From the IMG/VR virus record IMGVR_UViG_3300032309_001623, positions 1-55,037 of that record: DNA of 55,037 bases. One strand, 5' to 3'. Below the pieces are notes generated by a model. It was not told where the DNA came from and did no database searches. It was given only the letters and a program-made list of their open reading frames with translations. The stretch is from a virus (lineage: Duplodnaviria > Caudoviricetes). Position numbers and translations under genes: made by a program. Shown piece after piece: positions 7,576 through 29,663 of this stretch (positions within the stretch are counted from its first letter, which is position 1; each line of letters begins with the position of its first letter).

Positions 7576-7580
7576 ATATT

Positions 7581-7956: not shown

Positions 7957-8030
7957 ATAAATCTCCGTGTGTTGTGTGTGAAATAAAGGTCGCGTCTTTT
8001 TGAGCCTTAACACGACTATGGGGGCTAATA

Positions 8031-8234
8031 TTATTCTGATTTGCCTAAACGACCCATGTCGCCAGTATGGGTAACCCCATCGGCGACTACAATAGTTACT
8101 GGCATTAATTCAATACTTCCAGGTGCTAAATCACCTACGTCTGCTCCAGTTTTTGGGTCTTTGACTTCAGCATAGCCTTCGTCATAAGGTACACCCATTG
8201 CTGTTGGTTTTGCTTCTGATGCTTTTGTTTTCAT
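8031..8234 (-). CDS. Hypothetical protein
   Basis: 67-aa ORF with AAGG RBS. Confidence 0.6.
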   Translation of the reverse strand: MKTKASEAKPTAMGVPYDEGYAEVKDPKTGADVGDLAPGSIELMPVTIVVADGVTHTGDMGRLGKSE

Positions 8235-8242
8235 AAAATGCC

Positions 8243-8413
8243 TTATTTAGGGTATCTAGGGTACATACCTTTGCACATTGCACATTGGCAAGTTTCACAG
8301 TGGTATGGGTTCATGGGTTGACCAGGCATTACGTCTTTTGCTTCTGGCATTGGGCCATGTGGTCCAGGTGCAGGTTTAACAAATGCAAGTGGAGGTTTCT
8401 TCTTTGGTTTCAT
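8243..8413 (-). CDS. Small Pro/Cys-rich protein
   Basis: MKPKKKPP...CETCQCAMCKG; AAGGA RBS right after tRNA-Ile. Confidence 0.6.
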   Translation of the reverse strand: MKPKKKPPLAFVKPAPGPHGPMPEAKDVMPGQPMNPYHCETCQCAMCKGMYPRYPK

Positions 8414-8427
8414 AGGAATCCTTAACG

Positions 8428-8502
8428 TGGTATCCATGGACAATTTCGAAATGTCGGCCTAACGCTTATCAAGCGTTTGCTCTGCCTCTGAGCTACACGG
8501 AT
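8428..8502 (-). tRNA. tRNA-Ile(GAU), atypical T-stem
   Basis: ATCCGTG...AACGC-TTGATAA-GCGTT...GACAT-TTCGAAA-TTGTC-CATGGAT-ACCA. Confidence 0.88.
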
Positions 8503-8507
8503 ATAAT

Positions 8508-8582
8508 TGGTACTCCCGAACGGTTTCGATCCGTCTTTTCCGCCTTGAAAGGGCAGCGTCCTAGCCAGTAGACGACGGGAGC
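8508..8582 (-). tRNA. tRNA-Glu(UUC)
   Basis: CTGCC-CTTTCAA-GGCGG; T-loop ATCGAAA; CCA. Confidence 0.92.
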
Positions 8583-8591
8583 ATTATTTTT

Positions 8592-8667
8592 TGGTACCGA
8601 TGATTGGACTCGAACCAACCACACACAGATTTTCAGTCTGCTGCTCTACCTGATGAGCTACATCGGC
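8592..8667 (-). tRNA. tRNA-Phe(GAA)
   Basis: GCAGA-CTGAAAA-TCTGT, CCA. Confidence 0.95.
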
Positions 8668-8883
8668 TTAAAATGCTGGATTCTGTTCTTGCCAAGCTAA
8701 AGACTCAAGTTCACCACAATCTGTACGCCAAGCGCATTGTGATAACATCATAGTAGAGCAATCATCAAAACCCCAACAATGCGGAGGTTCTTGACCTCTC
8801 ATTGATTTAATTTGTTGCAGTATGTAGTAGCGTCGGTTGCTGAGGTTGGCTTCTTTATTTAGCAAAGTTTGTATTTCAGTCAT
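8668..8883 (-). CDS. Small Cys-containing hypothetical protein
   Basis: 71 aa, CWGFDDCS...C...C; preceded by a TTGAAA...TATAAT promoter. Confidence 0.65.
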   Translation of the reverse strand: MTEIQTLLNKEANLSNRRYYILQQIKSMRGQEPPHCWGFDDCSTMMLSQCAWRTDCGELESLAWQEQNPAF

Positions 8884-8928
8884 AATTATACCAGATTTTA
8901 AAACTTATTTCAAGCCTAAAAATAGCTG

Positions 8929-9004
8929 AGGGGTGACCACTGGGAATCGAACCCAGACTAAAAGAATCACAATCTCGGGTGCTAACCGTTACACTATGGC
9001 CACA
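8929..9004 (-). tRNA. tRNA-His(GUG); T at -1, 3' end reads CCT rather than CCA
   Basis: GTGGCCA/TGGTCAC acceptor stem, C73, TTGTGAT loop. Confidence 0.85.
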
Positions 9005-9010
9005 CCTAAG

Positions 9011-9214
9011 CTATTTTGTGCAATTAAAACATACACAACTTGGGTCGTGCCAAGGTTTGTTTGGTTGAGCTGGAACAGGATTTTCACTTGGCGTTTGCTT
9101 ATCATTGATATGAATAGCTGCAGCCGCTGCTTTACAAGCAGCTAAAGTATCGAACTGACAGTTGCCATGTTCGCCATATTTCCATTTACCGTTAGCACAC
9201 TTCATGCAAGGCAT
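9011..9214 (-). CDS. Small Cys-rich protein
   Basis: MPCMKCANGKWKYGEHGNC...CVCFNC; AAAGGA RBS; start re-called outside tRNA-Ser. Confidence 0.65.
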   Translation of the reverse strand: MPCMKCANGKWKYGEHGNCQFDTLAACKAAAAAIHINDKQTPSENPVPAQPNKPWHDPSCVCFNCTK

Positions 9215-9230
9215 AAAATTCCTTTGTTTG

Positions 9231-9318
9231 TGGCGGAAGTAGTAGGATTCGAACCTACGCGCCAATTTCTCAACGACAGTTTAGCAAACTGCTGGTTTAA
9301 CCACTCACCCATACTTCC
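9231..9318 (-). tRNA. tRNA-Ser(GCU)
   Basis: GCAGT-TTGCTAA-ACTGT, long variable arm, CCA. Confidence 0.95.
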
Positions 9319-9447
9319 GTTAAATACCATATAGAAACACTTTCAATATCAGTTCAATGCTGGCACAAAGAACCTTTCGCAGCTGCCAGGCTACCGAATA
9401 TTGGCCGCATATATTCGCAGTTACTATTCGTCAAAAATGTTTTTATA

Positions 9448-9522
9448 TGGTAGACGCACAGAGAATCGAACTCTGATTTGTAGGTTAAAAGCCCACTACT
9501 TTAGCCGTTAAGTTATACGTCC
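9448..9522 (-). tRNA. tRNA-Lys(UUU)
   Basis: GTGGG-CTTTTAA-CCTAC, CCA. Confidence 0.92.
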
Positions 9523-9523
9523 A

Positions 9524-9649
9524 TTAACCGTCCCAACCTTCTCGGTTGAGTTTTCCGCGCAATTGCTTGTGCGATTTTTTATGTGAACCACTGCCGTTAC
9601 GCTTCATTAAAGCGACTACAACATGGTTCCGAGGTTTTCGTGTTTTCAT
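9524..9649 (-). CDS. 41-aa highly basic peptide (possibly ribosome-associated)
   Basis: MKTRKPRNHVVVALMKRNGSGSHKKSHKQLRGKLNREGWDG*, TAAGGA RBS. Confidence 0.65.
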   Translation of the reverse strand: MKTRKPRNHVVVALMKRNGSGSHKKSHKQLRGKLNREGWDG

Positions 9650-9665
9650 AATTATCCTTAAAAAT

Positions 9666-9740
9666 TGGTGGACCGAGGGAGGATCGAACTCCCACCCGAG
9701 GCTTGCAAAGCCACTGTGCTCCCATTATCACTATCAGCCC
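9666..9740 (-). tRNA. tRNA-Ala(UGC)
   Basis: TTTGCAA loop, G3-U70, CCA. Confidence 0.93.
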
Positions 9741-9922
9741 ATTTTAGATTATGTACTGTTTACTACCCAAGCCGCTAAGCCTGTGATCTTGACTTACCAG
9801 GTTCATGACACCCGCCTATATCAAAATTCATATTATACCCTGTAAGTTTCCTAGGACATACAGGTCTCAAATATGCAAAACCCCGAAACTGAATCGGTGT
9901 TCGAGCAGTACATAAACTAAAA

Positions 9923-9996
9923 TGGTCTCGGTGGCAAGAATCGAACTTGCGCTACATGGTCCCAAACCACGGGTGATACCATTTCACTACACCGAG
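9923..9996 (-). tRNA. tRNA-Pro(UGG)
   Basis: CGTGG-TTTGGGA-CCATG, CCA. Confidence 0.95.
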
Positions 9997-10069
9997 ATTT
10001 CATCCGCCTTGCTTGAAGTGTGCTGCCCAATATTAGGGATGTACTAGTATTGGGCAGCATAAGCGGGAC

Positions 10070-11068
10070 TTAGTTTAAAAATGTGGCAACAGCCAAGTTT
10101 TTTTCTTTTGATTCACACATTATATCTGCAACAGGACTAAATGTCAAGGCCCATTTATTTACTGCTTGATTCCAGTAGTAGTCTGAATGAGCACGAAGTT
10201 TAGTTGAGGTAAACCCCATAGACTTTAGCTGAGCTAGATCAGGTTTTGTAGCAGGGTCGTGATCTATAAGCACATCTTCGCGGGACACTGAGTAGTGAAT
10301 AACTGGTCGAACACCACGCCATGACTCTACTACAGATTTTACTCTATCATCATCAGGTTCAATGTACTCGCCTGTGGCAATCCAGTGGTGATGAATGTCT
10401 AAGACTAAGGCACAGTCAAGCATCAACTCTAGCGATGCATCAAGACCCCAGGTATACTCAGCATTTTCAATAGTCAAGCAATTACGCGCTTCAGGACTCA
10501 GCTTTTTTAGAGCAGCTTGAATTCCATTAGGTCCGCGCTTACCGCCGATATGTACGTTACACTTAAAGTCTTGAAACTTTTTGCCATAGCCCATATATCT
10601 GATAAGGTCACAGTGGTACTCAAACTCAAGAATACTGCGATCAACAATTCCATCATTCTCACTCGCTAAAACACAAAATTGACCTGGATGAAACGATAAA
10701 CGCACATCTAGGCTACGGGCTAGGTCACCAATCTTGCTGAGATTGGTTTCTAGAAATTGTACTACATCTGACTGAAAGTAAAACCACATCCAGTCATCGT
10801 GGGTGTAAGCGGTCAAGAGATCACTAGATATACGAAACATTCTAAGATTTGGATCTCGACCGCCTACCCACACAATTTGGTTACGAAGGGCATCAATGTT
10901 ATGACGCATCAAGTCCCAAAGACGAGCACACGCTACGTCTTTGGATTGTTTGTTGAGCCATGTGATAGTTGTTGCTTTTGTGTTCAGTTTAGGGTCAGCT
11001 ACACCTTCGGACTTTTGAATCTTACAGGCAAAGCCAACTCTGTTAATTTCTTGGTTAAATGTGTGCAT
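10070..11068 (-). CDS. uvsE: UV-damage endonuclease UvsE/UvdE
   Basis: RVGFACK, MFRISSDL, VRLSFHPGQF, LTIEN, LVLDIHHHW, RAHSDY, DIMCESKEKN motifs. Confidence 0.92.
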   Translation of the reverse strand: MHTFNQEINRVGFACKIQKSEGVADPKLNTKATTITWLNKQSKDVACARLWDLMRHNIDALRNQIVWVGGRDPNLRMFRISSDLLTAYTHDDWMWFYFQSDVVQFLETNLSKIGDLARSLDVRLSFHPGQFCVLASENDGIVDRSILEFEYHCDLIRYMGYGKKFQDFKCNVHIGGKRGPNGIQAALKKLSPEARNCLTIENAEYTWGLDASLELMLDCALVLDIHHHWIATGEYIEPDDDRVKSVVESWRGVRPVIHYSVSREDVLIDHDPATKPDLAQLKSMGFTSTKLRAHSDYYWNQAVNKWALTFSPVADIMCESKEKNLAVATFLN

Positions 11069-11069
11069 T

Positions 11070-11429
11070 TTATTGCCAGGTTCTGTGTGCTTCAGCAACG
11101 TGCTCAAGACCATCATACTCTACAATATGCCAGTCTATGTCGTCAGGAATATCAACAATTTTAATACTGGCATAGTGCCCATTAGCAGCTTCGCCCAGGT
11201 GTTCAATAACTGCAATCAAGTCAGGGTCATTGCGCTGCTGATAGAACTCGTAAGAATTAATATAAGTAGCGTCTGAGTGTGGACGGCCTGCTAGGTAATA
11301 GTCACTACCTCTCCAGGCTTTTTCAGTGTCTACTACCTCAAATGCAATGCCTTTACGTGCAAGCAGCGCTTCAAACGCTTGATCGCTAATGCTAAATCCG
11401 CCAAAATCTGTGTTAATTGCTATTTTCAT
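11070..11429 (-). CDS. Hypothetical phage protein
   Basis: KIAINTDFGGFSIS...RNDPDLIAVIE...IVEYDGLEHVAEAHRTW. Confidence 0.8.
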   Translation of the reverse strand: MKIAINTDFGGFSISDQAFEALLARKGIAFEVVDTEKAWRGSDYYLAGRPHSDATYINSYEFYQQRNDPDLIAVIEHLGEAANGHYASIKIVDIPDDIDWHIVEYDGLEHVAEAHRTWQ

Positions 11430-11450
11430 TTTGTGTGTGCTTTAGTTATG

Positions 11451-11534
11451 TGGTACCCCAGAGGAGACTCGAACTCCTACGCCTTGCGACATTGGCTTCT
11501 AAGACCAACGTGTCTACCATTCCACCACCAGGGC
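11451..11534 (-). tRNA. tRNA-Leu(UAG)
   Basis: TTGGT-CTTAGAA-GCCAA, variable arm, CCA. Confidence 0.95.
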
Positions 11535-11551
11535 TTTAATTATATATTATA

Positions 11552-11881
11552 CTATGAAACAACAATGTTGTCAATACTCAAAATCTTAATAGTTACATCG
11601 CCGCGTTCTTCAGCTTGTTTTAGCCAATTTGCTAAAACACCTTGCATTAGTGAACTCATGTGATAGTTGTTGGCATGACAGCGGTATGTGCTGCCTGAAT
11701 AGCCGTCAAACTCAAACCACTCGCCTTCTTTGCGTGTAACAGTAATTCCTGAGTTAAGTTTCCAACTATTTGATCCAGCAAAACCGCCATACCAACCAGC
11801 AAATACTTTGCGTAAAGGAAGGTCATATTGTGGAGCGTCAAATTCCAAGACAACCCAAACATCGGGTGTATAGGTACTCAT
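11552..11881 (-). CDS. Hypothetical phage protein
   Basis: YTPDVWVV...AGWYGGFAGSNSWKLNSG...GYSGSTYRC. Confidence 0.8.
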   Translation of the reverse strand: MSTYTPDVWVVLEFDAPQYDLPLRKVFAGWYGGFAGSNSWKLNSGITVTRKEGEWFEFDGYSGSTYRCHANNYHMSSLMQGVLANWLKQAEERGDVTIKILSIDNIVVS

Positions 11882-12075
11882 AGTGTTGCTTTGTAAGTTT
11901 TAATAGCGTCTGCATCAAGTGATGCATACACACGAAATTTGTCTCTGCCAACTCGGTCGTACAAGTCTGTGGCAAGTTTTTCAAGATGCTCTAGGCTTTC
12001 AACTGTGATTAGTGTACACGCCACATAACGACTCATAAAAGCATCAATTAAAAATTCTTTGGTATATCCTGCCAT
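11878..12075 (-). CDS. Hypothetical protein
   Basis: GGAGA RBS, ATGA overlap with the next gene. Confidence 0.7.
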   Translation of the reverse strand: MAGYTKEFLIDAFMSRYVACTLITVESLEHLEKLATDLYDRVGRDKFRVYASLDADAIKTYKATL

Positions 12076-12141
12076 ATTATTTCTCCAAATGAGTTATTAT
12101 TATAACCCATTCAGAGACTTAACACAAGCCTATATTTATAG

Positions 12142-12216
12142 TGGTCCGGCCTACAGGAATCGAACCCATATTCACGGTGTAGAAGACCGCTGTATTATCC
12201 ATTATACTAAGGCCGG
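12142..12216 (-). tRNA. tRNA-Arg(UCU)
   Basis: GCGGT-CTTCTAC-ACCGT, CCA. Confidence 0.92.
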
Positions 12217-12220
12217 TAAT

Positions 12221-12643
12221 TTATACGCCTTGGGGTCTGAACAATTCTGTTTCAAAAAACTCTTGCAGTTCAGGGTCCATGTACTCAAAGTTATCTGGAA
12301 TGTTAAGCACAATTTGCTTTTGTTCAATTTGGTCTAGCAAATCCTTGTGACCTAAAAAGTTATCTTCTAGTTGCCACAAGTTCTCACGATTAACAAACAC
12401 AATCTTTTCGGCCCAGTTAATTAGATTAGCACTGCAAGGTACTAGCGCATAGTTAAAATTTGAGCCACATGAGCGACTGTTGATACCGCGTTTGACAGCG
12501 AGTGCAGCGCCGGTTGGGCTTCGCAAGAGACCAGCGCTACACACAAAAAGCCAGCGAGGACTGCTGCCTTGATATGGGTTGCTGTATGGGGCATTAGTTT
12601 GAAAGATTGCGGCATTTTTTGTTCCAGTGCTAAATTCTTGCAT
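12221..12643 (-). CDS. Low-molecular-weight protein tyrosine phosphatase-like protein
   Basis: LFVCSAGLLRSPT P-loop (CX5R) and IPDNFEYMDPEL. Confidence 0.8.
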   Translation of the reverse strand: MQEFSTGTKNAAIFQTNAPYSNPYQGSSPRWLFVCSAGLLRSPTGAALAVKRGINSRSCGSNFNYALVPCSANLINWAEKIVFVNRENLWQLEDNFLGHKDLLDQIEQKQIVLNIPDNFEYMDPELQEFFETELFRPQGV

Positions 12644-19872: not shown

Positions 19873-20102
19873 GTTTAATTTTAGCTCGTCAAGCAGGCTT
19901 TAAAATAGACGACATGGGTAATGTTAGTCTCAACGATGAGTGGTGTACTATTGAAGTAGAGCTTTTAATTCAACTAGTGGCAGGCTGGTGTCTAGAAAAG
20001 AATCGTAGGCACCTTTTTAGTTATCAAGCCACTAAAGAGATTCTTAACGACTTTGGCTACAACAATGTAGACCCTAAGCCTGATCAAATGAGGCCCGTGT
20101 GA
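19857..20102 (+). CDS. Hypothetical protein
   Basis: Operon-packed ORF. Confidence 0.6.
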   Translation: MDDKLSLILARQAGFKIDDMGNVSLNDEWCTIEVELLIQLVAGWCLEKNRRHLFSYQATKEILNDFGYNNVDPKPDQMRPV

Positions 20103-20296
20103 TTACAGAACACAACAGCTACTATGGTGTTAGAAAAACCAGAACTAATTTTTTACACAACCAAGAGCCTTATATACAAGTTATAGTACACAAAATATAC
20201 TACTGTGACCTGTGTGAACGATATATAACAAACCAAATATTAGCTCAAAACCACGACAGGGAACAACATGAAAACACCAATGCAAGAACTACTTGA
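20099..20296 (+). CDS. Small C2H2-like zinc-binding protein
   Basis: YYCDLCE...H...H. Confidence 0.55.
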   Translation: MITEHNSYYGVRKTRTNFLHNQEPYIQVIVHKIYYCDLCERYITNQILAQNHDREQHENTNARTT

Positions 20297-20627
20297 ATAC
20301 AATCGTGAAGAACCCCTAGACCCCATAGCAAAACAACCAGTTCCAGAAACTAAGCTAAAGGCTAAAAATCACCGAGAACTGGTAACGCAGTGGCTCTTAG
20401 ACAAGCTGCAAGAAGAGTCAGCTGAAGTTATTCAGGCGATAAGCAAAGTCCGCAGGTTTGGTGAACAAAACCACCACCCTGACAGAAAAACTACTAATTT
20501 ACAGGAACTTGTCACAGAACTGGAAGATTTCTTGGCAATTGTTGCGAGTCTAGAGCACCTACAATACTTTGATCTCACAAAACATCAAGCCAACATCTTA
20601 AAGAAAACGCAAGCTTTGATCTCTTAA
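20268..20627 (+). CDS. MazG-like nucleotide pyrophosphohydrolase
   Basis: LQEESAEVIQAISKVRRFG...LVTELEDFLA (EExxE...ExxD). Confidence 0.75.
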   Translation: MKTPMQELLEYNREEPLDPIAKQPVPETKLKAKNHRELVTQWLLDKLQEESAEVIQAISKVRRFGEQNHHPDRKTTNLQELVTELEDFLAIVASLEHLQYFDLTKHQANILKKTQALIS

Positions 20628-20691
20628 CGAAAAATACACTTGCCACCAATTTGCTTGATGTGATATAATTTAGTATAAATTGATAAAGTTT

Positions 20692-20827
20692 AAGACTAGA
20701 CACTTTGAGTGGTTGCACTAAAACACACAAATATGTCGTTCAGGGAGAACTTGTTCCTTGGGGACCCTGCAAGACGACATAATTTTTGTAGGTTTAGGGT
20801 CAAACACAATCAAAGTAGGCTGGTCTT
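20692..20827 (+). other. ~135-nt imperfect rod-like hairpin in a promoter-driven 5' leader
   Basis: AAGACTAG/CTGGTCTT, ACTTTGA/TCAAAGT, TATGTCGT/ACGACATA, CAGGG/CCCTG; TTGCCA-N18-TATAAT at 20640-20669. Confidence 0.7.
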
Positions 20828-20857
20828 CAAGCCATTGGACAACTACGAGCTAAAAAT

Positions 20858-21640
20858 ATGCTAACACTAAAGAAATTACACATCGAAGAATTACCACTTA
20901 AACTCATTGCCACAATGACCGAAACTGAGTTGGAGGACTTTGCCCAAAAAAATTCGCTTAATCGCATGGGATCGTGGCTTTTGCCCCAACTTGTGGCGGC
21001 TTTTGGTAGTTGGCGGCTTATCTTAGTGGATAACAAGATAGATGTAAAACAGACCCTAAAGCACAACTGTGAGCACAGTTTGGCGGCTCAGGCAATGTGG
21101 AGACTTAGTAGAATCGCACGTACTTGTCTTTTAACCAAGCAGATAGCAATGGCAGAGTATGCTGTACTCACTCCACTAGTCCTAGCAGGATTTAAACGTA
21201 TGCAGGGTGTCAGCTATGAGAGCTGGAGAAATTGTGAAAACTTGGACTATGTGCTAGAACCCCGTTTATATGAAGCGGTTTGTGTAGATGTACCCACTTT
21301 AGGGTCGGAAAGATTATTAGAAATTAGACAACAGGGGCTAATGACCCGTAGTGGCAAAAGTGCAGGCCAGCTAAAAAATGCAGAAACTACTTGGAGTTTG
21401 AATGGAATATCAGATACTGAGTTGGGACACCTACCCAAACTTACCCAATCCATAATGACACAAATCTGGCTAGCACATCCGGTTCACAGACATAACCTGA
21501 TGATTTTAGACCCCACAAATTGGGATCACATGCCAGATCCACTAATTGCACCAACAATATTTAAGCAACCTGTTAAAGAATCCGCTGCATTAGAAGAAAC
21601 ACCAAAAGAAACAACAAAAACCTTATTACCCTGGATGTAA
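20858..21640 (+). CDS. Hypothetical early protein (260 aa)
   Basis: Long ORF with C-terminal MILDPTNWD motif; no function recognised. Confidence 0.75.
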   Translation: MLTLKKLHIEELPLKLIATMTETELEDFAQKNSLNRMGSWLLPQLVAAFGSWRLILVDNKIDVKQTLKHNCEHSLAAQAMWRLSRIARTCLLTKQIAMAEYAVLTPLVLAGFKRMQGVSYESWRNCENLDYVLEPRLYEAVCVDVPTLGSERLLEIRQQGLMTRSGKSAGQLKNAETTWSLNGISDTELGHLPKLTQSIMTQIWLAHPVHRHNLMILDPTNWDHMPDPLIAPTIFKQPVKESAALEETPKETTKTLLPWM

Positions 21641-21641
21641 C

Positions 21642-21959
21642 ATGAAGTACACCAAAGAAATCACTGACCGTATTATAGCTGACTACAAGGCTAAGGTGCC
21701 AGTTAAAGACATTGCTACTGCAATTGACGTGCCTGAAAGATCAGTTATAGCAAAATTAAGCTCGCTTGGAGTTTACGAGAAAAAAACTTATGTTAACAAG
21801 CGAGGTGAGCTCCCAGTGAAAAAATCCGAGCATATTGACAGGATTGCAGAATTGCTGGAGGTGAGCTCAGAGACCCTAGAATCGCTGGAAAAGGTAAATA
21901 AAGGGGTACTCAAGTTAATTGAACTTAAATTGACTGAAGCTGACCCTAAACCAGAATAA
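21642..21959 (+). CDS. T5 A2-like DNA-binding protein, paralogue 1
   Basis: YT.E.T...IA..I....RSVIAKLS..GVY..K...KK.....IA....LESLEK pattern shared with T5 A2 as recalled. Confidence 0.75.
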   Translation: MKYTKEITDRIIADYKAKVPVKDIATAIDVPERSVIAKLSSLGVYEKKTYVNKRGELPVKKSEHIDRIAELLEVSSETLESLEKVNKGVLKLIELKLTEADPKPE

Positions 21960-21977
21960 TTGCCCTAATTTAGCTTA

Positions 21978-22010
21978 AGCCCACATTCGGTGACGTTTGT
22001 GGGCTTTTTT
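21978..22010 (+). terminator. Intrinsic terminator
   Basis: AAGCCCACA...TGTGGGCTT followed by a T run. Confidence 0.8.
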
Positions 22011-22181
22011 GCGCTTATTAAAGAACACTTTAATATGGGCTGGGTTAAATTAAACATTTCTTTAATAGTGGTGATTGTGGCGGTTTAGGGTCAGAACAAG
22101 AAAACTCACTTGACAAAGTTAGTTGGCCACTATATAATTGGCGCAGGCACGTCAGTTTTTTCTGTGGTGATTCTGACGGGC

Positions 22182-22219
22182 AAAACAAAGCCCCCTGATC
22201 TGCCGATGAGGGGGCTTTG
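22182..22219 (-). terminator. Intrinsic terminator of the large non-coding transcript
   Basis: CAAAGCCCCCT...AGGGGGCTTTG followed by TTTT on the minus strand. Confidence 0.8.
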
Positions 22220-22707
22220 AAAAGACTGCGTCTAGAATCGTCTGTTTTTTTTTGTGCTCACATCACGACTCAGACTGCCAAGAACCACTTGGACTTACTG
22301 CGTGACCCTAAACCACAGTGACCTGACCAGCTGCGTGAGGTTATGCATGCTGCGCTTTAGTGGAAGGGAAGACTTAATACCTAGTCCACACTAGGATTTA
22401 TATCGGTTTGCGGCCGGTGGAAATAAATGCCTCTGGAGTTTTACGACATACTGTGGCTTAGGGTCGGTTTCTTACAGTTGCCTCTGACTGGACATATTTA
22501 CGAACCCGCCTCAGCTTAGGGTCGAGCCCGTCAGTGGGCTAATCTACCAAGAATATTTAACGTGTATACCAGATAGCACGGCATGGGATATAGGGTCGGC
22601 TCCCTAGGGTTACTCTTTACCACAGCACTACTAAGTTTCAGGGGGTCGCTGCATCAGCCGAAGCTCAACAGACCACCCCTTCCAGTTTTCGTGTTTGTGG
22701 GATTCGT

Positions 22708-22803
22708 CCTGACCCTAAGTCGCACCAGCGGTTCCGTGGGAGTAGAACGCACACTGGTACAGACACTTAGAGTTTCGCTGAAATTGCATCAGCTCGTCAG
22801 AGG
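22708..22803 (-). ncRNA. Hammerhead ribozyme (type I topology)
   Basis: CCT-CTGACGA-GCTGA(TGCAATT)TCAGC-GAAA-CTCTAAGT...ACTTAGGG-TC-AGG; GUC triplet; predicted cut between 22711 and 22710; stem I only 3 bp. Confidence 0.8.
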
Positions 22804-23023
22804 GTTAAGGTGGGCGGTGTGTAGCTTCTCACACCATCAAGTTGTTATCCTACTGTAATTTCGGTCGCATAACACCCAAATTCGTTTGCTAAGGGCTGTG
22901 GCTCGGTTTAAATTTCCCACAATTAAGACGTATCTTCATAAGCAGTAATATATCGCCGAAGACCGCTGTCACCCTGTCTAATCTATATAATAATTATACA
23001 GTAAATAAGCTGCACATTCAAGT

Positions 23024-23164
23024 AAAAAATAACAGTCGTTGCCACTATGATCTAACTTCGCAGGTGTGTCGACATACAGTGACTGGTTAGTGCGCAAAGA
23101 GATCGCTGACAAACGGGCGGCTGGGTTTTCTCAGTCATTCATTAAGCCCTTCCCGACTGTTTAT
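23024..23164 (-). ncRNA. Putative ~135-nt structured RNA
   Basis: Promoter TTGATC-N17-TATAAT (23199-23171); closing stem AACAGTCG/CGACTGTT followed by a U-rich tail. Confidence 0.6.
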
Positions 23165-23225
23165 AAATAAATTATACAGTAATTAGGGTCATTGATCAAG
23201 TTAAGATTTTCTGACCCTAAATTGG

Positions 23226-23534
23226 TCAAACCAAACGGTTTGCCAACAGCTCGAGGGCTTCGTGGGTAGCTTTCTCCAAGCTCTCCAACACTTCCTCGCT
23301 TGCGCCCACTTTGAGGGCAATCACTGCAACCAGCTGAGCCTTGGTCACACGAGCGCCAGCAGCCTTGCTTTTGGCTTTGTAAACGCCCTCACGAGAGAGT
23401 TTGGCAACCACGCTGCGAGTGGTCTTGCCCAACTGGGTAGCCAAAGCTTCCACAGTTTCGCCAGCTTGGTAGCCGGCAACGAGAGCCTGGGTTTGCTCGG
23501 GGGTATAGTTGGTTTTGGTAGCTTCAGTCATCAT
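23226..23534 (-). CDS. T5 A2-like DNA-binding protein, paralogue 2
   Basis: NYTPEQT...GKTTRSVVAKLSREGVYKAK...LESLEKA; GAAAGGA RBS; TTGACG-N17-TATAAT. Confidence 0.8.
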   Translation of the reverse strand: MMTEATKTNYTPEQTQALVAGYQAGETVEALATQLGKTTRSVVAKLSREGVYKAKSKAAGARVTKAQLVAVIALKVGASEEVLESLEKATHEALELLANRLV

Positions 23535-23581
23535 ATGTCCTTTCAATTGGTTTCTGCGCTGTTTAAAGAATAATTATATCA

Positions 23582-23716
23582 CTACAAGGGCACATCGTCA
23601 AATTCAAAAATGTTGTCGTGTACGTGGATAGCAGGAAGATTTTTGGATAGTTCGGATTCCATGAATTCTGCAAACCACTGCTCCTGATCTAAGCTGAAAA
23701 ATTCGGTGTCTGTCAT
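23582..23716 (-). CDS. 44-aa acidic peptide ending FEFDDVPL
   Basis: MTDTEFFSLDQEQWFAEFMESELSKNLPAIHVHDNIFEFDDVPL*; TTGAAA...TATAAT promoter and AGGGAA RBS upstream. Confidence 0.5.
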   Translation of the reverse strand: MTDTEFFSLDQEQWFAEFMESELSKNLPAIHVHDNIFEFDDVPL

Positions 23717-23871
23717 GAGCCGTTCCCTGTCATCAATAAATAAATTATACAGAAATCAAAAAAAGTTTTCAAATCCAAATTTTTGCACTTGGCCTTACAC
23801 TCACCGGCAGAAAAATTCACTTGACACATAAAGGTTTTGCACTATATAATGGGCGCAGGGAGGTCAAACCC

Positions 23872-23952
23872 CCAAGAATTTACACTTGCTTTTCCACTGG
23901 CGCAGCCTGGAGAACTACCAAGAATTTACACTAGCTTTTCCACTGGCGCAGC
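23872..23952 (+). repeat. 35-bp direct repeat, 2 copies
   Basis: CCAAGAATTTACACT(T/A)GCTTTTCCACTGGCGCAGC at 23872 and 23918, 1 mismatch. Confidence 0.9.
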
Positions 23953-24005
23953 GCGGAGCGCTGTAGTACTAAAGTACTCAATTTCACAATGTGAAATTTA
24001 CCCTG

Positions 24006-24024
24006 AATGAGAATCATTCGCATT
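24006..24024. promoter_or_regulatory. Fur-box-like palindrome
   Basis: AATGAGAATCATTCGCATT, 9-1-9 inverted repeat with one mismatch. Confidence 0.7.
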
Positions 24025-24031
24025 TGGCCGT

Positions 24032-24092
24032 GGGAACGGAATTTGCTAATAGCAAGAATCGTGCCAGCCCCACAGGCGCAAGAATCGTGCCA
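24032..24092. promoter_or_regulatory. Three sigma54 (-24/-12) consensus sites
   Basis: TGGCACGATTCTTGC twice on the minus strand (24066-24052, 24092-24078); GG-N10-GC (GGAACGGAATTTGC) on plus at 24033. Confidence 0.75.
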
Positions 24093-24318
24093 GGTTGCAG
24101 AAAAACAACATAGGGGAAAACACCTACAAAAAAGTTCTTGACACCGGCTCCAAAATTGTGGTATAATTTTGGCGCAAATAACCCTACTGGCTGTAGGGTT
24201 ATTAAGCTAAAAAATAACCCTGCGCTGGGCAGGGTTATAAAAAATATGCTAGGGGGATTTTCACCCCCATTCCCGATTAAAAAATCGGATATTAAAAATT
24301 ATATGATAGCATATTTTT

Positions 24319-24645
24319 TTAAACTGGCTTAGAGTTTGCCAGTGCTTCGAAAATTGCTTTCAAAGCCGATTTGTTCGCTTTTGTGAGCGATTCAATATCA
24401 TTCTCAGGCAAGCGGAGAATTGCGCCGATTGCATCGGCGTGAGCGTCTTTTTTGACGACAGGCTCACCAGTTTTGGAAACATACGTTTTTGCAACGTAGA
24501 CTTTTTCGCGTGACAGTTTTGCAACCACCGAGCGAACAGTTTTACCGAGATTTTCGGCGATAGTTTCAACCGAAACACCAGCCGAATAATCGGCTACCAT
24601 TTGAGCAGTTTGCTCAATGGTATAATTGACAGTTTTTGTAGCCAT
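24319..24645 (-). CDS. T5 A2-like DNA-binding protein, paralogue 3
   Basis: VNYTIEQTAQMVADY...GKTVRSVVAKLSREKVY; TTGACA-N17-TATAAT upstream. Confidence 0.8.
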   Translation of the reverse strand: MATKTVNYTIEQTAQMVADYSAGVSVETIAENLGKTVRSVVAKLSREKVYVAKTYVSKTGEPVVKKDAHADAIGAILRLPENDIESLTKANKSALKAIFEALANSKPV

Positions 24646-24913
24646 TTTCTAACCCTTTCAAGATTGTTTAAAAATTAAATTATAGCAGAAAATTTAGAGT
24701 TGTCAATAACCTATTTTTTGTGGGGTTATTTGCAGTTTTCCGTTTTTCCCTGCTATGGCACATTATAGCACAGATTTTTGTTGTTTTTTAATCACACACA
24801 AAAAATAAGTTATCGAAAAAGCTTGACACCGGCTAAAATTATATGTTATAATTTTGGCGCAAACTCTGCAAACAAAAGTATTCATTTTTGTTTGCAGAGT
24901 TAAACTTTTGTTT

Positions 24914-25126
24914 TCAGAAAAAGTTAATTAATCCGATTACGTTTGCAATGAAAAATGTACCATTTAGTACACCCAAAGCCTTGTCGCGTTTTTTGTACGC
25001 AACCCACAACCATGAAAGCGAACCAAAAGTAAACAAAACGTATCCGATTTGAAACATTTTAGTTGCAACAGCAAACGAACCAAAAATACTAGTCAGAGTG
25101 CCAAACCAAGAAACAAAAGTAATCAT
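24914..25126 (-). CDS. Small 3-TM membrane protein
   Basis: 70 aa, three hydrophobic segments; ATGA overlap with the SprT gene. Confidence 0.7.
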   Translation of the reverse strand: MITFVSWFGTLTSIFGSFAVATKMFQIGYVLFTFGSLSWLWVAYKKRDKALGVLNGTFFIANVIGLINFF

Positions 25127-25503
25127 TTTCTCAAAATCTCCATTGTGTGATATTTAACGGGTTCAAGCCCATATTCTACCATGATTTTTTGCCAATTTGC
25201 GCCATGCCCACAATTTTTTTCGGATATTCCAAAAAGGTCAAAATCGGCTTGGTGGATAATTTCATGGGGCAAAATAACTGTAAACATTTGTTTGCGGTAT
25301 TCAGCCGAATGTAAGAAAAATTTATAACCAATTTGAACAATTCTGTCCTCTTGGTGGCACATACCCGCAGTGCGATATAATCTTGCACACAAACGTATTA
25401 CAGGCGGATTAAATTTGCATAATTTAGGATACATTTCGCAAAGCGAATCCCAAATTGTCGCAGTCTCACGCTCTATCAGGGTTTGAAGTTCTTTTCTGTT
25501 CAT
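25123..25503 (-). CDS. SprT-like zinc metalloprotease
   Basis: RLYRTAGMC...VILPHEIIH...GHGANWQKIM. Confidence 0.85.
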   Translation of the reverse strand: MNRKELQTLIERETATIWDSLCEMYPKLCKFNPPVIRLCARLYRTAGMCHQEDRIVQIGYKFFLHSAEYRKQMFTVILPHEIIHQADFDLFGISEKNCGHGANWQKIMVEYGLEPVKYHTMEILRK

Positions 25504-25662
25504 AGGCAAATTATACATGAAAAACCCGTTGTTTTTTAATCACACACAAAAAATATGTTATCGAAAAAGCTTGACACCGGCTAAAATTATATGCTATAAT
25601 TTTGGCGCAGCAAAGTAGTACTTTTGTTTTCAATTTTATTTGAAAACAAAAGTATTACACAA

Positions 25663-25911
25663 TTATTTTTTCGGAAATAATTTAAAATAAATAATAACCG
25701 ATAAAAATATTACATTTGCGGAATAATTAAATAATAATGGCATATCCATTTTAGGAAATACATATATTATTGTGAATATCTCGCCCATAAACCACATTGA
25801 AATAAATCCCCAAGTTAATCCATCAGAGGATTTTGTTTTAAATGATTCAATGGCTTGCGGTAATCCGCAAAATGCCAATAATATAGAACCAAGCCAGCCG
25901 ATATTTTCCAT
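25663..25911 (-). CDS. PQ-loop/SemiSWEET-family membrane protein
   Basis: IGWLGSILLAFCGLPQAIESFKTKSSDGL...PLLFNY..N. Confidence 0.85.
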   Translation of the reverse strand: MENIGWLGSILLAFCGLPQAIESFKTKSSDGLTWGFISMWFMGEIFTIIYVFPKMDMPLLFNYSANVIFLSVIIYFKLFPKK

Positions 25912-25945
25912 TTATTATTAATCGGGGTTATTAGCCCCGATTATC

Positions 25946-26644
25946 TCATTTTGCTATAAAGTGATTTTTAACCTGAAAATCTTGCCAATTATAAGGTTTG
26001 ATATTATCTTGCCAATTGCGTTTTTTGATTATATGCGAGAGAATCGGCAATTCAAAATCTCGGGCATCTTCTAGGGCTGTATGCGGCTCAATAATAATAT
26101 TATTATTAATAAAGCCACACACAATCTCAGCATTGGTTTTAAATGTCATATTGCCATTTTTGGTGGTATTATTAAATTGGTGATTATCAAGTGCAAATTG
26201 TTTAAATGCTTTTTTATTGCAGATATTACCAATTGAGGCTTGCCAAAGGCAAAAGCGAGAATTAAACCCTGATAAATCAATACCAGTATTTGCACATTTT
26301 GACAAATCAAAAGCCAGATTATATGCAGTTAATGAGGGATTATATTTGCCAATGGCTTGATTAATCCATTTATTAATAGCATTAACTGAAGCCAACATTC
26401 TCACGCCATTATCTAGCATGGCATCATAGGTGGCTTTGCGCTTATGCAAACCAGCATAACCCCAAATATCATTAGCATTTTTATCATGGAATAATTCCAT
26501 TGTGCTATAATGACCCGAAACCAAAACCGCACATTGATTGTAAATCTTACCATTACGATCAACGATCACAATGGCAAAATCTGCCACAGTATCATTAATG
26601 GTTGTTTCAGTATCGAGAATTGCAAAAAACTGCTTTTTAGCCAT
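25946..26644 (-). CDS. DEDDh 3'-5' exonuclease
   Basis: ILDTET, AYNLAFD, HTALEDA..E motifs. Confidence 0.85.
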   Translation of the reverse strand: MAKKQFFAILDTETTINDTVADFAIVIVDRNGKIYNQCAVLVSGHYSTMELFHDKNANDIWGYAGLHKRKATYDAMLDNGVRMLASVNAINKWINQAIGKYNPSLTAYNLAFDLSKCANTGIDLSGFNSRFCLWQASIGNICNKKAFKQFALDNHQFNNTTKNGNMTFKTNAEIVCGFINNNIIIEPHTALEDARDFELPILSHIIKKRNWQDNIKPYNWQDFQVKNHFIAK

Positions 26645-26826
26645 TGTGTGCCTTAGTTGGTAAGCCTAGATTATATCATAAAATTTTTTTGCATAGTGTT
26701 GTATTTTAAACACACACAAAAAATAAGTTATCAAAAAAAGCTTGACAAGCCCCAATTATATAGTATATAATTGGCGCCCCGAAAACGAAAGTATTACATT
26801 TCGTTTTCGTTTGCAAACCTTGGTTT

Positions 26827-27303
26827 TCAATGCCCTTGTTTGCTTGGCACATAAACCCCACGAATATTAAAACGATCACAAACCGCTTTAAGATAATCTA
26901 CATTATCCTCATAAAAAGTAAATTCAGCATCTTTGAAATTTAGCAAATTAAAGAATTTAGCCAAACCTGCAATTTTGAGTTTTGCGCCTGATATAGTGTC
27001 GCCATCAGTGCGAGAGATGATATAATCGGGTTCGCCTAAAATCTCACGAATAAATTGATTATCAGCGGAACGCAAAACGCGGGCAGTAGCAATAATAACA
27101 AAACAATTCTCGTTTGTGAGATCATTTTTATATTGTTCTGCCAATGGTAACAAAGTATCAGACATTGCACGATACTCATTTTCACGCCAATAACCCAAGT
27201 CGATACGCTCGCCATTGTCATCAATGATAGTACGATAACGATGCAGAGAATCCACGATTGTGCCATCCATGTCATAAATTGAAACCTTTGTGATTTTAGC
27301 CAT
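26827..27303 (-). CDS. HAD-superfamily phosphatase (polynucleotide-kinase 3'-phosphatase-like)
   Basis: IYDMDGTIVD, IATAR, K, FYEDN motifs; AAGGAA RBS. Confidence 0.85.
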   Translation of the reverse strand: MAKITKVSIYDMDGTIVDSLHRYRTIIDDNGERIDLGYWRENEYRAMSDTLLPLAEQYKNDLTNENCFVIIATARVLRSADNQFIREILGEPDYIISRTDGDTISGAKLKIAGLAKFFNLLNFKDAEFTFYEDNVDYLKAVCDRFNIRGVYVPSKQGH

Positions 27304-27504
27304 TTGCTTGTTTCCTTGTTGCGATGAAATCATTATACATCAAAAATCAGCCCTACAACAAAAATTTTGCGTTTTTGCAAAAATACAACATAGGTGAAAA
27401 CACCTAGCAAAAAATCCTTGACACGCCCCAATTATATGTGATATAATTGGCGCCTCAAAAGTAGTACCTTTGTTTTCAATTTTCTTGAAAACAAAGGTAT
27501 TCAT

Positions 27505-27762
27505 TTAGCCCCTTGCTGGACCAGTTGCCTTAGCCATAAAATCCTCAAATTCCCATTGGGCATTTGAACCCCAACCCTCAGCAATTTTTTGCTCAGGTGT
27601 CATGGATTCTATAACCTTAATCAAACCCTCACGCTGGGCTTGCAAGAATTCCATAGAATTCCATTCTTCTTGCGTCCAATGCCTAGGACGCATCCCATGC
27701 ACATCTTTATAAAAATCCCACAATTCGGTTTGCAGGTCGTTCAACAGTTGTTGACTGGTCAT
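27505..27762 (-). CDS. Hypothetical phage protein
   Basis: LWDFYKDVHGMRPR motif. Confidence 0.75.
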   Translation of the reverse strand: MTSQQLLNDLQTELWDFYKDVHGMRPRHWTQEEWNSMEFLQAQREGLIKVIESMTPEQKIAEGWGSNAQWEFEDFMAKATGPARG

Positions 27763-27890
27763 AGGTCATCCTCAGAAAAAAATTGTTCAAGTGCGCCATT
27801 ATACTCGGCAAGGTTTGCAAATGCAAGCCCATGCCGATCACAAAAGCGATGGAATCGTGAAAGTTGTTTTTCAGTGTATTTTGTTTTCAT
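27759..27890 (-). CDS. Small hypothetical protein (43 aa, apparently leaderless)
   Basis: MKTKYTEKQLSRFHRFC...; ATG 6 nt after TATAAT. Confidence 0.6.
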   Translation of the reverse strand: MKTKYTEKQLSRFHRFCDRHGLAFANLAEYNGALEQFFSEDDL

Positions 27891-28042
27891 GTGTTTATTA
27901 TACCAAGTTTTCAGCAAAAAAGTCAAGTGTGTAAAAATACAACATAGGGGAAAACACCTATTGACACCGTTGCCATTATACAGGTATAATGGCGCCGCCA
28001 GCAAACGAAAGTATTACATTTCGTTTTGTAGGCATTTTGTTT

Positions 28043-28375
28043 TCAATTTTTATCAACGCCCTTGAGATAGATTTCTTCTATCTCAAAGTGATTGCCCATA
28101 GCCTTAGCCAATCGTTTAAAGTGTCTACCATGTATCTCAGTCTTACCATTTTCTTCTTGCCATGCGTGAATAAGCTCATGGGCTAACAGTGCATTAAACT
28201 CTCGCACATTATCGCCAACATGAATTGTAATTCTATGCTCCAACAGTTTACCAGTCTTATCAGAATATCTGGCAATGTAAAGCCCGTCAAAGTGCTTATT
28301 GTTGCGAGTATTAACACGCACAACAACAGGCTTAGTTAAGCCTAAAAATTTAATGAATGTGTGAAGGTTTTGCAT
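28043..28375 (-). CDS. SprT-like HEXXH metalloprotease, second copy
   Basis: LLAHELIHAWQ...HGRHFKR. Confidence 0.8.
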   Translation of the reverse strand: MQNLHTFIKFLGLTKPVVVRVNTRNNKHFDGLYIARYSDKTGKLLEHRITIHVGDNVREFNALLAHELIHAWQEENGKTEIHGRHFKRLAKAMGNHFEIEEIYLKGVDKN

Positions 28376-28424
28376 GGCTAGATTATAGCATAAAAATGTA
28401 GGGGCATAAAGCCCCTACAATCTA

Positions 28425-28748
28425 TCAGGCTTTCTCAGCCTTGATGAAATCTGCAATCTTAGCGAGTGCAGTCTTGTTAGCCTTAGTGAGTGATTCCATG
28501 TCAGCCTCACTCAAGCCCAATGCTTGACCGATATAATCAGCGTGAGCATCTTTCTTAACAACAGCCTCACCAGTCTTAGTGGTGTAGGTCTTAGCCTTGT
28601 AAACTTTCTCACGAGAAAGTTTAGCAACAACAGAGCGAACAGTTTTGCCCAATGCTTCAGCAATGGATTCAACAGCTACACCAGCTTGATAGTCAGCGAC
28701 CATCTGGGCGGTTTGCTCAGGGGTATAGTTTACAGTTTTTGCAGTCAT
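28425..28748 (-). CDS. T5 A2-like DNA-binding protein, paralogue 4
   Basis: Closely similar to 24319-24645; GGAGA RBS. Confidence 0.8.
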   Translation of the reverse strand: MTAKTVNYTPEQTAQMVADYQAGVAVESIAEALGKTVRSVVAKLSREKVYKAKTYTTKTGEAVVKKDAHADYIGQALGLSEADMESLTKANKTALAKIADFIKAEKA

Positions 28749-28773
28749 TTCATTTTCTCCAAAGTTGAAAGGG

Positions 28774-28887
28774 TTAAGGGGTCATCACAAAAGCAAAGTA
28801 TAGCACGAAAGGCAAGGCAATGCAAGCCATGCACAATGCTAAATCTAAAAATTCTTGAAGTTTGTTCATAGTGTCTTTCGTTGTCAT
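28774..28887 (-). CDS. Small single-TM protein (37 aa, apparently leaderless)
   Basis: MTTKDTMNKLQEFLDLALCMACIALPFVLYFAFVMTP. Confidence 0.55.
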   Translation of the reverse strand: MTTKDTMNKLQEFLDLALCMACIALPFVLYFAFVMTP

Positions 28888-29189
28888 GTGTTTATTATAG
28901 CCCAAAAAACCAGAAAAATTCAAGTGTGTAAAAATACAACATAGGGACAAACACCTATTGACGGGGTAGAACAATCTGTGATATACTGACAGGGGGGTTA
29001 TCAGACTCTAAAAACCACACACGCTGCTGGACCCCCTGGCACGGCCTAACATTGAAAATTTACTCAAACACAATAAGGTGCGCATGAAATTCACGTGCCA
29101 CGTGACCCTAAACCACCAAAACCACCACAAAAAAATCAACTTGCTCCGACAACGCTAACCTGATATAATAACCCAAAAAGGATTCTTTT

Positions 29190-29663
29190 ATGACACAAAA
29201 TCTACCTGCCGAAATCATCAAGCTGGCCCCTGAAATGCTTGAAGTAGCAAACTGCTACTTGCAACTCAATGACCCCAGAAAGGTGGCCCAAGAGCTGGAC
29301 ATAGAAGTTGAAGTAGTAACAGACTATCTCAAGCGCAGAGAAGTAAAACAGTATATTGATGCTGTGTTTTTTGACTCAGGTTACAACAACCGTTTCTTAA
29401 TGCGCAGAGCTATGGATGCCCTTATCAAGCAAAAGTTTCAAGAGCTGGAGGAGGCCGGAGCCGGCTCACAAAAGGACATCTCAGAACTCTTAGCCCTTTC
29501 GCACAAGATGAGCATGGATCTCATGGACAAGGAGATTCAATTGGAGAAAATCCGTTCGGGCACTGCACCGCAAAAGCAAGTTAACGTGCAAATCAACGAA
29601 GGCTTAGACGGCAGCAAGTACTCTAAGTTGGTACAACAACTGATCTCAGGTGAGGGTGTATAA
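29190..29663 (+). CDS. terS: Terminase small subunit, T5-like
   Basis: PE..EV..CYLQ...EVKQYIDAVFFDSGYNNR...KFQELEE.G.GSQKDI pattern; position; promoter TTGCTC-N17-TATAAT. Confidence 0.8.
   Translation: MTQNLPAEIIKLAPEMLEVANCYLQLNDPRKVAQELDIEVEVVTDYLKRREVKQYIDAVFFDSGYNNRFLMRRAMDALIKQKFQELEEAGAGSQKDISELLALSHKMSMDLMDKEIQLEKIRSGTAPQKQVNVQINEGLDGSKYSKLVQQLISGEGV

Follow-up and report, generated by a model that had tools for sequence, protein, structure and literature searches.

A gene-free element with a fixed frame and a hypervariable core in the pre-early-like block of an uncultured T5 relative

Why should a phage carry, in a stretch of DNA without genes, a dense cluster of sites that resemble the binding sites of its host's own regulators? 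The question is raised by IMG/VR virus record IMGVR_UViG_3300032309_001623 (Caudoviricetes), a piece of 55,037 bases with an estimated completeness of 52%, which was analysed over its full length and is referred to here as the window. A first-pass annotation had listed palindromes, a Fur-like box, sigma54 sites and a sigma70 site within 23963-24175 and had read them as a DNA sponge or landing strip that takes up host proteins on incoming DNA to sequester regulators, shield the DNA or ratchet its entry. The listed motifs are all present in the sequence, two of the sigma54 boxes being perfect and the sigma70 site scoring 12/12; these two boxes and the promoter block greatly exceed chance expectation and recur in relatives. 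The observation is both real and more general than could be seen at that stage, while its interpretation is partly supported. The element to which these sites belong is a cis-acting, gene-free region with a fixed frame and a swappable core, lying in a pre-early-like block of small genes, and its core, a cassette of sites with the look of high affinity, varies among relatives. Judging from sequence comparison, we put at about even the chance that it is a cis element of the type of the T5 injection stop signal (iss) that loads host proteins.

All coordinates given here come from the sequence itself and agree with scans for exact matches. The element spans approximately 0.5 kb, and its true start, at about 23821, lies to the left of the cluster first described. 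Neither the list of open reading frames (ORFs) nor an alignment with eight relatives contains a conserved ORF within 23717-24318, a stretch that holds a tandem repeat of 46 nucleotides (nt), five palindromes and a duplicated 16-mer (Table 1). The statement that no gene is adjacent was mistaken, as the cluster is flanked by minus-strand genes at 24319-24645 and 23582-23716, at distances of about 145 and 245 nt, respectively. The repeat unit resembles the adjoining real promoter minus its -10 hexamer, retaining the -35-like part and TTTT(G/C)CACT and then passing directly into GGCGCAG. Neither the units nor the pieces of the cassette are found anywhere else in the window. A DnaA-box reading of TTTTSCACT in the units was considered and set aside as weak (6 matches versus 3.0 expected, with 10/100 shuffles reaching 6). 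The sigma70 site and the ACAACA block, which had been counted among the sponge sites, are instead parts of a repeated phage promoter module: the ACAACA-TAGG..CCTA block does recur, as had been noted, at 27363, 27917 and 28914 (family D3; one to three mismatches), and the second promoter of the element belongs to a set of eight plus-strand promoters of 12/12 between 22110 and 27990, in a region with 47 promoter-like sites versus 24.6 ± 4.5 in shuffles.

The comparison of related loci (80 + 40), in which conservation was counted over the 66 relatives with at least 900 nt of element flank, separates a constant frame from a changing core. The order of the frame, namely, sigma70 promoter, one to three promoter-derived repeats, hairpin, one or two 16-mers, and second promoter, is conserved among relatives, and the core cassette between these parts exists in 40 distinct versions. 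The promoter followed by GGCGC is present in 62/66 relatives, repeat units ending C(A/C)CTGGCGCA in 42/66 and the sigma54-type 16-mer in 31/66; the figures fall to 9/66 for GTACTwwwGTAC, 6/66 for the Fur-like core and 1/66 for the 19-bp palindrome. The first promoter is missing in two of the eight aligned relatives (L010 and L016). The hairpin that follows the last unit reaches -8 kcal/mol or lower in 34/39 distinct relatives, always at the same 31-nt place (mean of -11.9 versus -5.9 for shuffles), and since these stable folds are built from many different stems, it is the pairing that is kept and not the sequence, as in a covarying hairpin. It is stable more often on the plus strand (46 versus 22 of 71).

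The core was examined in 40 distinct cassettes taken between the last unit and the second promoter, which are related to each other, so that their counts are not independent; the content also differs across 26 distinct relatives. Sigma54 boxes are found in 25/40 cassettes, direct repeats GTAA(A/C)-N5-GTAA(A/C) in 11/40, Fur-like TGA(G/T)AAT-N-ATT(C/A) in 8/40, NtrC-like GCACY-N5-RGTGC in 5/40 and DnaA boxes in 1/40, whereas shuffled cassettes give a mean of at most 0.16 cassettes for any pattern; LexA, CRP and FNR patterns are found in 0/40. The NtrC consensus is given as TGCACCAnnnTGGTGCA in the available part of its source (PMC8743547), and one relative (L029) carries five tandem boxes that fit it, with no sigma54 box within 260 nt; another (L045) likewise has five tandem consensus NtrC boxes and no sigma54 promoter nearby. 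The only cassette with DnaA boxes (L014) holds four of them in two pairs, TGTGGATAA-CC-TGTGGACAA and TGTGGATAA-CC-TGTGGATAA. Other cassettes consist of three to six iteron-like repeats of 20-22 nt (CAGTCACAAA..) followed by an AT-rich palindrome, or of palindromes without a nameable match, and the cassette turns over even between close relatives. What had been described as a cluster of host-regulator sites thus holds as a conserved, family-wide cis element made of host-protein-consensus sites, but its AGTACT and 19-bp palindromes are lineage specific and match no nameable consensus.

The Fur-like box deserves similar caution. Its palindrome is present, and in at least 12 relatives the corresponding piece is a palindrome of 23-25 bp, CCAAATG-N-GAAT-S-ATTC-N-CATTTGG; on the 7-1-7 Fur consensus, the window's site scores 12/15, and the sites of relatives reach 13/15. 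On the classical 19-mer it stays below 14/19, a score that five unrelated sites in the window equal or exceed, so that the site in the element is no better than these.

The duplicated 16-mer, GCAAGAATCGTGCCAG, is found in exact form in 32/80 loci, always on the same strand, and, when extended by a GG prefix to an 18-mer, in 41 IMG/VR stretches whose flanks diverge. It accounts for the two perfect copies of TGGCACG-N4-TTGC, a pattern that occurs with at most one mismatch four times in the whole window versus 0.90 expected, and it fits TGGCACnnTTnTTGC, reported in the available part of the source as the consensus of sigma54 holoenzyme alone in E. coli (PMC8743547), including the TT in the spacer. 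As the two copies share sequence and not a stem, recognition as DNA by a protein is favoured. A tRNA- or anticodon-arm-like reading of the 16-mer was rejected by eye because the loop does not fit. In two relatives (L057 and L090), the sigma54 boxes stand head to head with their -12 ends 2-5 nt apart, a spacing at which both cannot fire or serve two working promoters. The same geometry is found in the cultured Vibrio phage vB_ValS_X1 (L147), which has three perfect matches to TGGCAC-N5-TTGC (control pattern, 0), all in its pre-early block, where two of them lie in gene-free stretches and the third where two small genes meet. Besides the head-to-head pair (record 89084-89116), its gene-free stretches contain three perfect DnaA boxes, several Fur-like boxes, a 17/20 LexA-like box and GGGCGCAG motifs, and the order of its block, A2-like, A1, dmp, terS-like and TerL, is the same neighbourhood as in the window.

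These sites invite an explanation by ordinary transcription control, in which host or phage regulators would tune the two plus-strand promoters together with a leftward sigma54 promoter feeding 23582-23716 and 23226-23546. A regulatory role is plausible for an element that has adjacent genes and whose sites lie between defined promoters: both sigma54 boxes are directed at minus-strand genes, four promoters come with the ACAACA block, two D5-like regulator genes flank the region, and in three of the relatives with GTAA(A/C) direct repeats (L030, L050 and L084) these repeats abut the -35 hexamer of the second promoter, the position of a response regulator. Such control, however, does not call for five consensus NtrC boxes in a row without a sigma54 promoter or for sigma54 boxes placed head to head, and it sits poorly with a cassette that is replaced between close relatives. 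In addition, no enhancer site, for which the expected distance is about 80-150 nt, is conserved upstream of the boxes (the hairpins at 24177-24238 are not conserved with the box), and the nearest gene downstream of the boxes owns a sigma70 promoter of 11/12. A phage regulon for the cassette palindromes was rejected, as they have no second copy in the window, and so was the NtrC site as a classical enhancer: the NtrC-like palindrome of L108 and L117 is found downstream of the sigma54 boxes, at a distance of 122-231 nt, and L029, L045 and L077 lack any such box. Altogether, we regard ordinary control as a possible but rather unlikely account of the element.

The genomic setting of the element leads to T5. 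The window is half of a genome of about 100 kb from an uncultured T5 relative, the genomes of its relatives being of that size. Its head-tail module is of the siphovirus type, with small and large terminase, portal, protease-capsid, tail tube and a tape measure protein of 2,407 amino acids (aa). The large terminase has its best identity, 50.5%, to T5-like Vibrio phages (Demerecviridae) and matches 1,268 phage records, many of which are Salmonella and Escherichia T5-like phages. At 2.6 kb from the repeat element, and within the same group of small genes that carries consensus host promoters, there is a homolog of dmp, a hallmark pre-early gene of T5, whose presence marks this block as pre-early-like. 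Of the 536 phage records that it matches, almost all come from T5-like phages and bear the annotation dmp, and several are entered under "left terminal repeat." The four D5-like paralogs, whose paralogy is evident from repeat families D1 and D5, match PHROG 1725 and 323 ("transcriptional regulator, D5-like"), and the terminase, the dmp homolog and these regulators together identify the window as a distant uncultured relative of T5. The element sits just upstream of the two terminase genes, a placement shared with the cultured Vibrio T5-like phage. No DNA similarity to isolates was found for the element region or for the D5-like protein.

In T5, iss is presented in the available text of the Davison preprint as a cis-acting site in a large untranslated region with a bewildering array of repeats and palindromes, and eight paired DnaA boxes are described in T5-like phages, together with the proposal that membrane-bound DnaA holds the DNA (10.1101/866236). 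The T5 record AY587007.1 annotates three untranslated repeat regions in the left terminal repeat and places the 7.9% major nick inside Repeat Region 3. We found that Repeat Region 3 contains, apart from DnaA boxes, a 19/20 LexA box at 9330-9349, for which the record's sole annotation is palindrome D, and a Fur-type box at 9579 scoring 14/15, within five Fur-like repeats built on AAATGAGAATCATT or AAATACGAATCATT. Both of these words occur in the T5 repeats as well as in the cassettes of relatives. More generally, T5 positions 1-12500 share 79 12-mers with the regions of 71 relatives, versus 26 in shuffles (maximum, 42), with the greatest density of shared 12-mers at T5 9471-9642, a part of Repeat Region 3. 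Of the major nicks annotated in T5, three have CCCTGCGC and one has CCCGCGC, corresponding to GCGCAGGG on the other strand, and the first of the four sits beside a palindrome and resembles GGCGCAG with its hairpin in the window. In the literature searched, with older subscription papers outside the search, no mention of a "Fur box," "LexA box" or sigma54 box in T5 iss was found, and the terms Fur, LexA, sigma and nicks have no occurrences in the available text of the Davison preprint (10.1101/866236). The suggestion of a part in DNA entry leads independently to the closest known object, the injection stop signal of T5; sponge, shield and ratchet are indistinguishable from sequence.

To the left of the element, the stretch 22140-23200 (about 1.1 kb), which follows a consensus promoter at 22110, apparently contains no real gene and is by position the counterpart of the large untranslated region of T5 with its many DRD repeats. 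The 8-mer GACCCTAA occurs 18 times in the window versus 1.1 expected, with 11 copies within 20070-23220.

Binding of sigma54 holoenzyme without firing is established. We propose that the element works as DNA and that, on entry into the cell, it would take up DNA-binding proteins that are abundant in the host: sigma54 RNA polymerase, held in a stable closed complex, and a Fur-family protein in the window, and NtrC or DnaA in relatives. The resulting nucleoprotein block would mark the end of the first-expressed segment and could be a barrier or an anchor, whether for transcription, for DNA transfer or for both, in line with the proposal made for DnaA at T5 iss. The host protein used appears to be interchangeable, since NtrC arrays without a sigma54 promoter, head-to-head sigma54 boxes and pairs of DnaA boxes suggest that the job requires some tightly bound protein and not one signal. 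The effect of loading may be a barrier to RNA polymerase, an anchor for the entering DNA or titration of regulators.

Several observations weigh against an iss-type, protein-loading element: (i) there is no canonical DnaA box in the element, the whole window having 4 TTWTNCACA versus 9.8 expected, and T5 has no sigma54 box TGGCAC-N5-TTGC, so that the two are alike in kind and in some modules but not throughout; (ii) T5 A1 and A2 gave no match in the window by tblastn and phmmer, nor did the A1 and A2-like proteins of the Vibrio phage match the genomes G000, G001, G003 and G005 at an E value of ≤0.01, which speaks against membership in the two-step T5 system, although very diverged versions may exist; (iii) the Fur-like site is a modest match whose conserved G is found in T5 as well and might instead be a sign of a phage protein; (iv) the 16-mer is invariant even in its spacer, and in one relative (L094) the 16-mer/18-mer is located at +1 of a sigma70 promoter, which fits an RNA or another protein as well; (v) the relatives are not independent samples; (vi) for the T5 region, too, the iss function is hypothetical; (vii) no RNA run was found to hold 21500-29500; and (viii) no terminal repeat could be placed from the contig ends. 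With regard to the last point, contig ends were rejected as genome termini: the ends of three "linear" relatives of about 100 kb map to approximately 20.2, 22.5 and 29.1 kb of the window, those of G001 and G004 are simple or low-complexity repeats, those of G002 are a duplicated, diverged stretch, and the end overlaps of two "DTR" relatives amount to only 127 and 56 nt (assembly overlaps), all of which makes them uninformative on the real termini.

The explanation by a replicating DNA sponge, whose multiplied arrays would titrate scarce sigma54, NtrC, DnaA and Fur and so disable host responses, would accommodate sites of consensus strength that are arrayed up to five in a row outside normal regulatory geometry and whose target identity changes between relatives, and it has a precedent in datA of E. 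coli, a known DnaA-titrating cluster. We nevertheless hold it to be improbable, given that there are only 2-6 sites per genome, that titration needs neither the fixed frame of units, hairpin and promoters nor the likeness to the T5 nick and iss, and that the early destruction of host DNA by T5-type phages, as described in the available preprint text, makes titration less needed (10.1101/866236).

A replication origin, composed of initiator-binding repeats and an AT-rich stretch and activated by the flanking strong promoters, seems to us an equally slim prospect. Several relatives do have tandem iteron-like repeats followed by an AT-rich palindrome, paired DnaA boxes are found in L014 and in T5, and an oriC-like look was remarked on by Davison in the available text (10.1101/866236); the cassette of the window, however, has neither iterons nor DnaA boxes, no replication genes are found nearby, and arrays for NtrC, sigma54 and Fur-like proteins are not parts of an origin.

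It is also quite improbable that the locus produces a structured non-coding RNA from the first promoter, with the hairpins and the 16-mer as RNA motifs. The folding z-scores (plus strand, -3.1; minus strand, -2.3) would agree with such an RNA, but runs of palindromes yield such values on both strands anyway; the hairpin after GGCGCAG, with its kept pairing, free sequence and preference for the plus strand, and the 18-mer of L094, with which transcription from a sigma70 promoter begins and whose possible fold has a stem of 5 bp and a loop of 7 nt, would agree as well, whereas the first promoter is not present in all aligned relatives, the 16-mer copies have no common stem, the core is hypervariable and Rfam gave no credible match inside 23821-24176 (best, 18 bits; E = 2.8). 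Chance look-alikes without function are scarcely credible, as AT-rich phage DNA does give many weak matches, such as the five unrelated sites of the Fur 19-mer, but the two perfect sigma54 boxes, the 18-mer kept exactly in 41 viral stretches with diverged flanks, the enrichment of patterns over shuffles and the like content of T5 and the Vibrio phage already contradict this reading.

Table 1. Features of the element and of its surroundings (window coordinates)
Feature	Position	Strand	Basis or remark
D5-like DNA-binding proteins, four paralogs	21642-21959, 23226-23546, 24319-24645, 28425-28748	+, -, -, -	
Flanking small gene, 44 aa	23582-23716	-	ORF list; start conserved in eight-relative alignment
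Own sigma70-type promoter of the 23582-23716 gene	23772-23744	-	11/12 in promoter scan
First consensus sigma70 promoter	23821-23858	+	-35 at 23821-23826, 18-nt spacer, -10 at 23845-23850; 12/12
GGCGCAG after first promoter	23852-23858	+	
Two 46-nt tandem repeats	23867-23958	+	Family D12; 89% identical
Promoter-like units in tandem repeats	23873-23905, 23919-23951	+	-35-like ACTTG(AC), TTTTCCACT, GGCGCAG; no -10 hexamer
GC-rich hairpin/palindrome AGCGC-GGA-GCGCT	23950-23962	+	Begins within last GGCGCAG
Hypervariable cassette	23963-24046	.	Content differs among relatives
GTAGTACT-AA-AGTACTC	23963-23979		Cassette piece
Perfect 19-bp palindrome	23980-23998		Cassette piece
Fur-like/T5 DRC-like 25-mer	24003-24027		Cassette piece
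CCGT-GGGA-ACGG	24028-24039		Cassette piece
Degenerate sigma54-like box	24032-24046	+	Identified by eye, with 2 mismatches
Two copies of the 16-mer	24052-24092	-	26 nt apart; each a perfect sigma54 -24/-12 box, with the boxes at 24052-24066 and 24078-24092
GTTG-N8-CAAC	24096-24111		
Upstream block AAAAACAACA + TAGG..CCTA	24101-24126	+	Followed by A-tract
Second consensus sigma70 promoter	24138-24167	+	12/12; families D3, D4, D9
GGCGCA after second promoter	24171-24176	+	
Three hairpins, terminator-like on minus strand	24177-24203, 24214-24238, 24250-24269	-	Terminator scan; inverted repeats I4, I6
Flanking D5-like DNA-binding protein gene, 108 aa	24319-24645	-	PHROG match
dmp homolog (5'-deoxyribonucleotidase)	26827-27333	-	tblastn and phmmer versus T5 dmp, E = 3e-13

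Further features were noted around the element. Directly downstream of the flanking D5-like gene and overlapping the hairpins, a degenerate tRNA-like element at 24244-24313 (minus strand) scores 34.2 bits with the Rfam tRNA model (gathering score, 29); its acceptor and T stems are intact, its anticodon arm is short, and there is no ARAGORN call. Elsewhere in the window, a tmRNA of the permuted two-piece type (tag ANDSQFALAA) is encoded at 138-552 on the minus strand, and 21 tRNA genes, all on the minus strand, lie within 1050-12216. The leader before the small terminase gene, 28990-29190, contains an inverted TGGCACG pair (29037 on the plus and 29094 on the minus strand), one GACCCTAA and a C-rich low-complexity run at which the contig of one relative breaks, making it a candidate genome-end site.

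Downstream of each of five more 12/12 plus-strand promoters, at 24823-24901, 25571-25658, 26742-26810, 27418-27499 and 27961-28050, come GGCGC(A/C) and a long hairpin composed of AAAC(A/G)AAAGTATTAC and its complement. All five promoter-hairpin modules oppose minus-strand genes and may give short hairpin RNAs or act as insulators. Small hydrophobic proteins are encoded on the minus strand at 24914-25126 (70 aa) and 25663-25911 (82 aa), each with a convergent consensus promoter at its 3' end, a layout reminiscent of type I toxin-antitoxin pairs.

If the loading of host proteins is extended beyond the window, the iss-type regions of T5-like phages might be programmable landing pads for host proteins, with loading on the first-entering DNA arresting or anchoring the genome in two-step entry; we offer this generalization tentatively and think it rather unlikely to hold. 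The fixed frame would then consist of pseudo-promoters, the hairpin and GGCGCAG as a possible strand-nick site of the family, and the core would be a replaceable array of sites matching the consensus of any abundant host protein that suits (sigma54 polymerase, NtrC, Fur, DnaA or LexA). If true, the 50-year-old iss problem would become a question of which host protein is bound. The stop of T5 DNA after the first 8% and the second-step transfer are still called poorly understood in the available part of a 2026 paper (PMC13250531), and the comparison of a constant frame with swapped cores gives a concrete lead, turning a descriptive puzzle into one that can be tested at the bench with existing phage-host pairs. 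It also suggests a general use of host DNA-binding proteins by phages as structural parts.

The element can be placed among known systems by what it shares with each of them and by what sets it apart. With datA of E. coli, it would share the character of a non-coding cluster of high-affinity sites that binds a host protein and does not regulate a neighbouring gene; datA, however, is chromosomal and serves one protein. With sigma54 promoters and with sites of sigma54 holoenzyme that are non-productive or intragenic, it shares the perfect TGGCACG-N4-TTGC, judged by the consensus in the available part of the source (PMC8743547), but it lacks a conserved enhancer site and a dependent gene without a promoter of its own, and its boxes are duplicated 26 nt apart. 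The promoter-early stem-loops (PeSLs) of T4-type phages are near-identical strong sigma70 promoters with stem-loops between small accessory genes, according to the available part of the report by Arbiol et al. (2010, PMC2839356), and the eight 12/12 promoters of the window, which lie on one strand within 22-28 kb, with hairpins and between small genes, are of similar appearance. They differ in pointing against the neighbouring minus-strand genes, which departs from the gene orientation of PeSLs, and the one-per-genome parts of the element (units, cassette and sigma54 16-mer) are not described for PeSLs in the available text.

The closest comparison is that with T5 iss, which is based on the following similarities: (i) the repeat words of the AAATGAGAATCATT type; (ii) the GCGCAG motif next to a palindrome, as at the annotated 7.9% nick of T5; (iii) the consensus boxes for host proteins, of which DnaA boxes are in print in the available preprint text (10.1101/866236) and LexA and Fur-type boxes were seen here in T5; and (iv) the placement between or after pre-early promoters. 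On the other hand, the element of the window has sigma54 boxes, which T5 lacks, and no canonical DnaA box, A1 and A2 were not found in the genomes searched, and the core of this family is hypervariable, whereas a conserved order is described for the corresponding regions of T5-like phages. Repeat regions of the T5 iss type are a known but unexplained kind of element, and the element of the window, if it is a version of them, is set apart by its sigma54 boxes and its hypervariable core.

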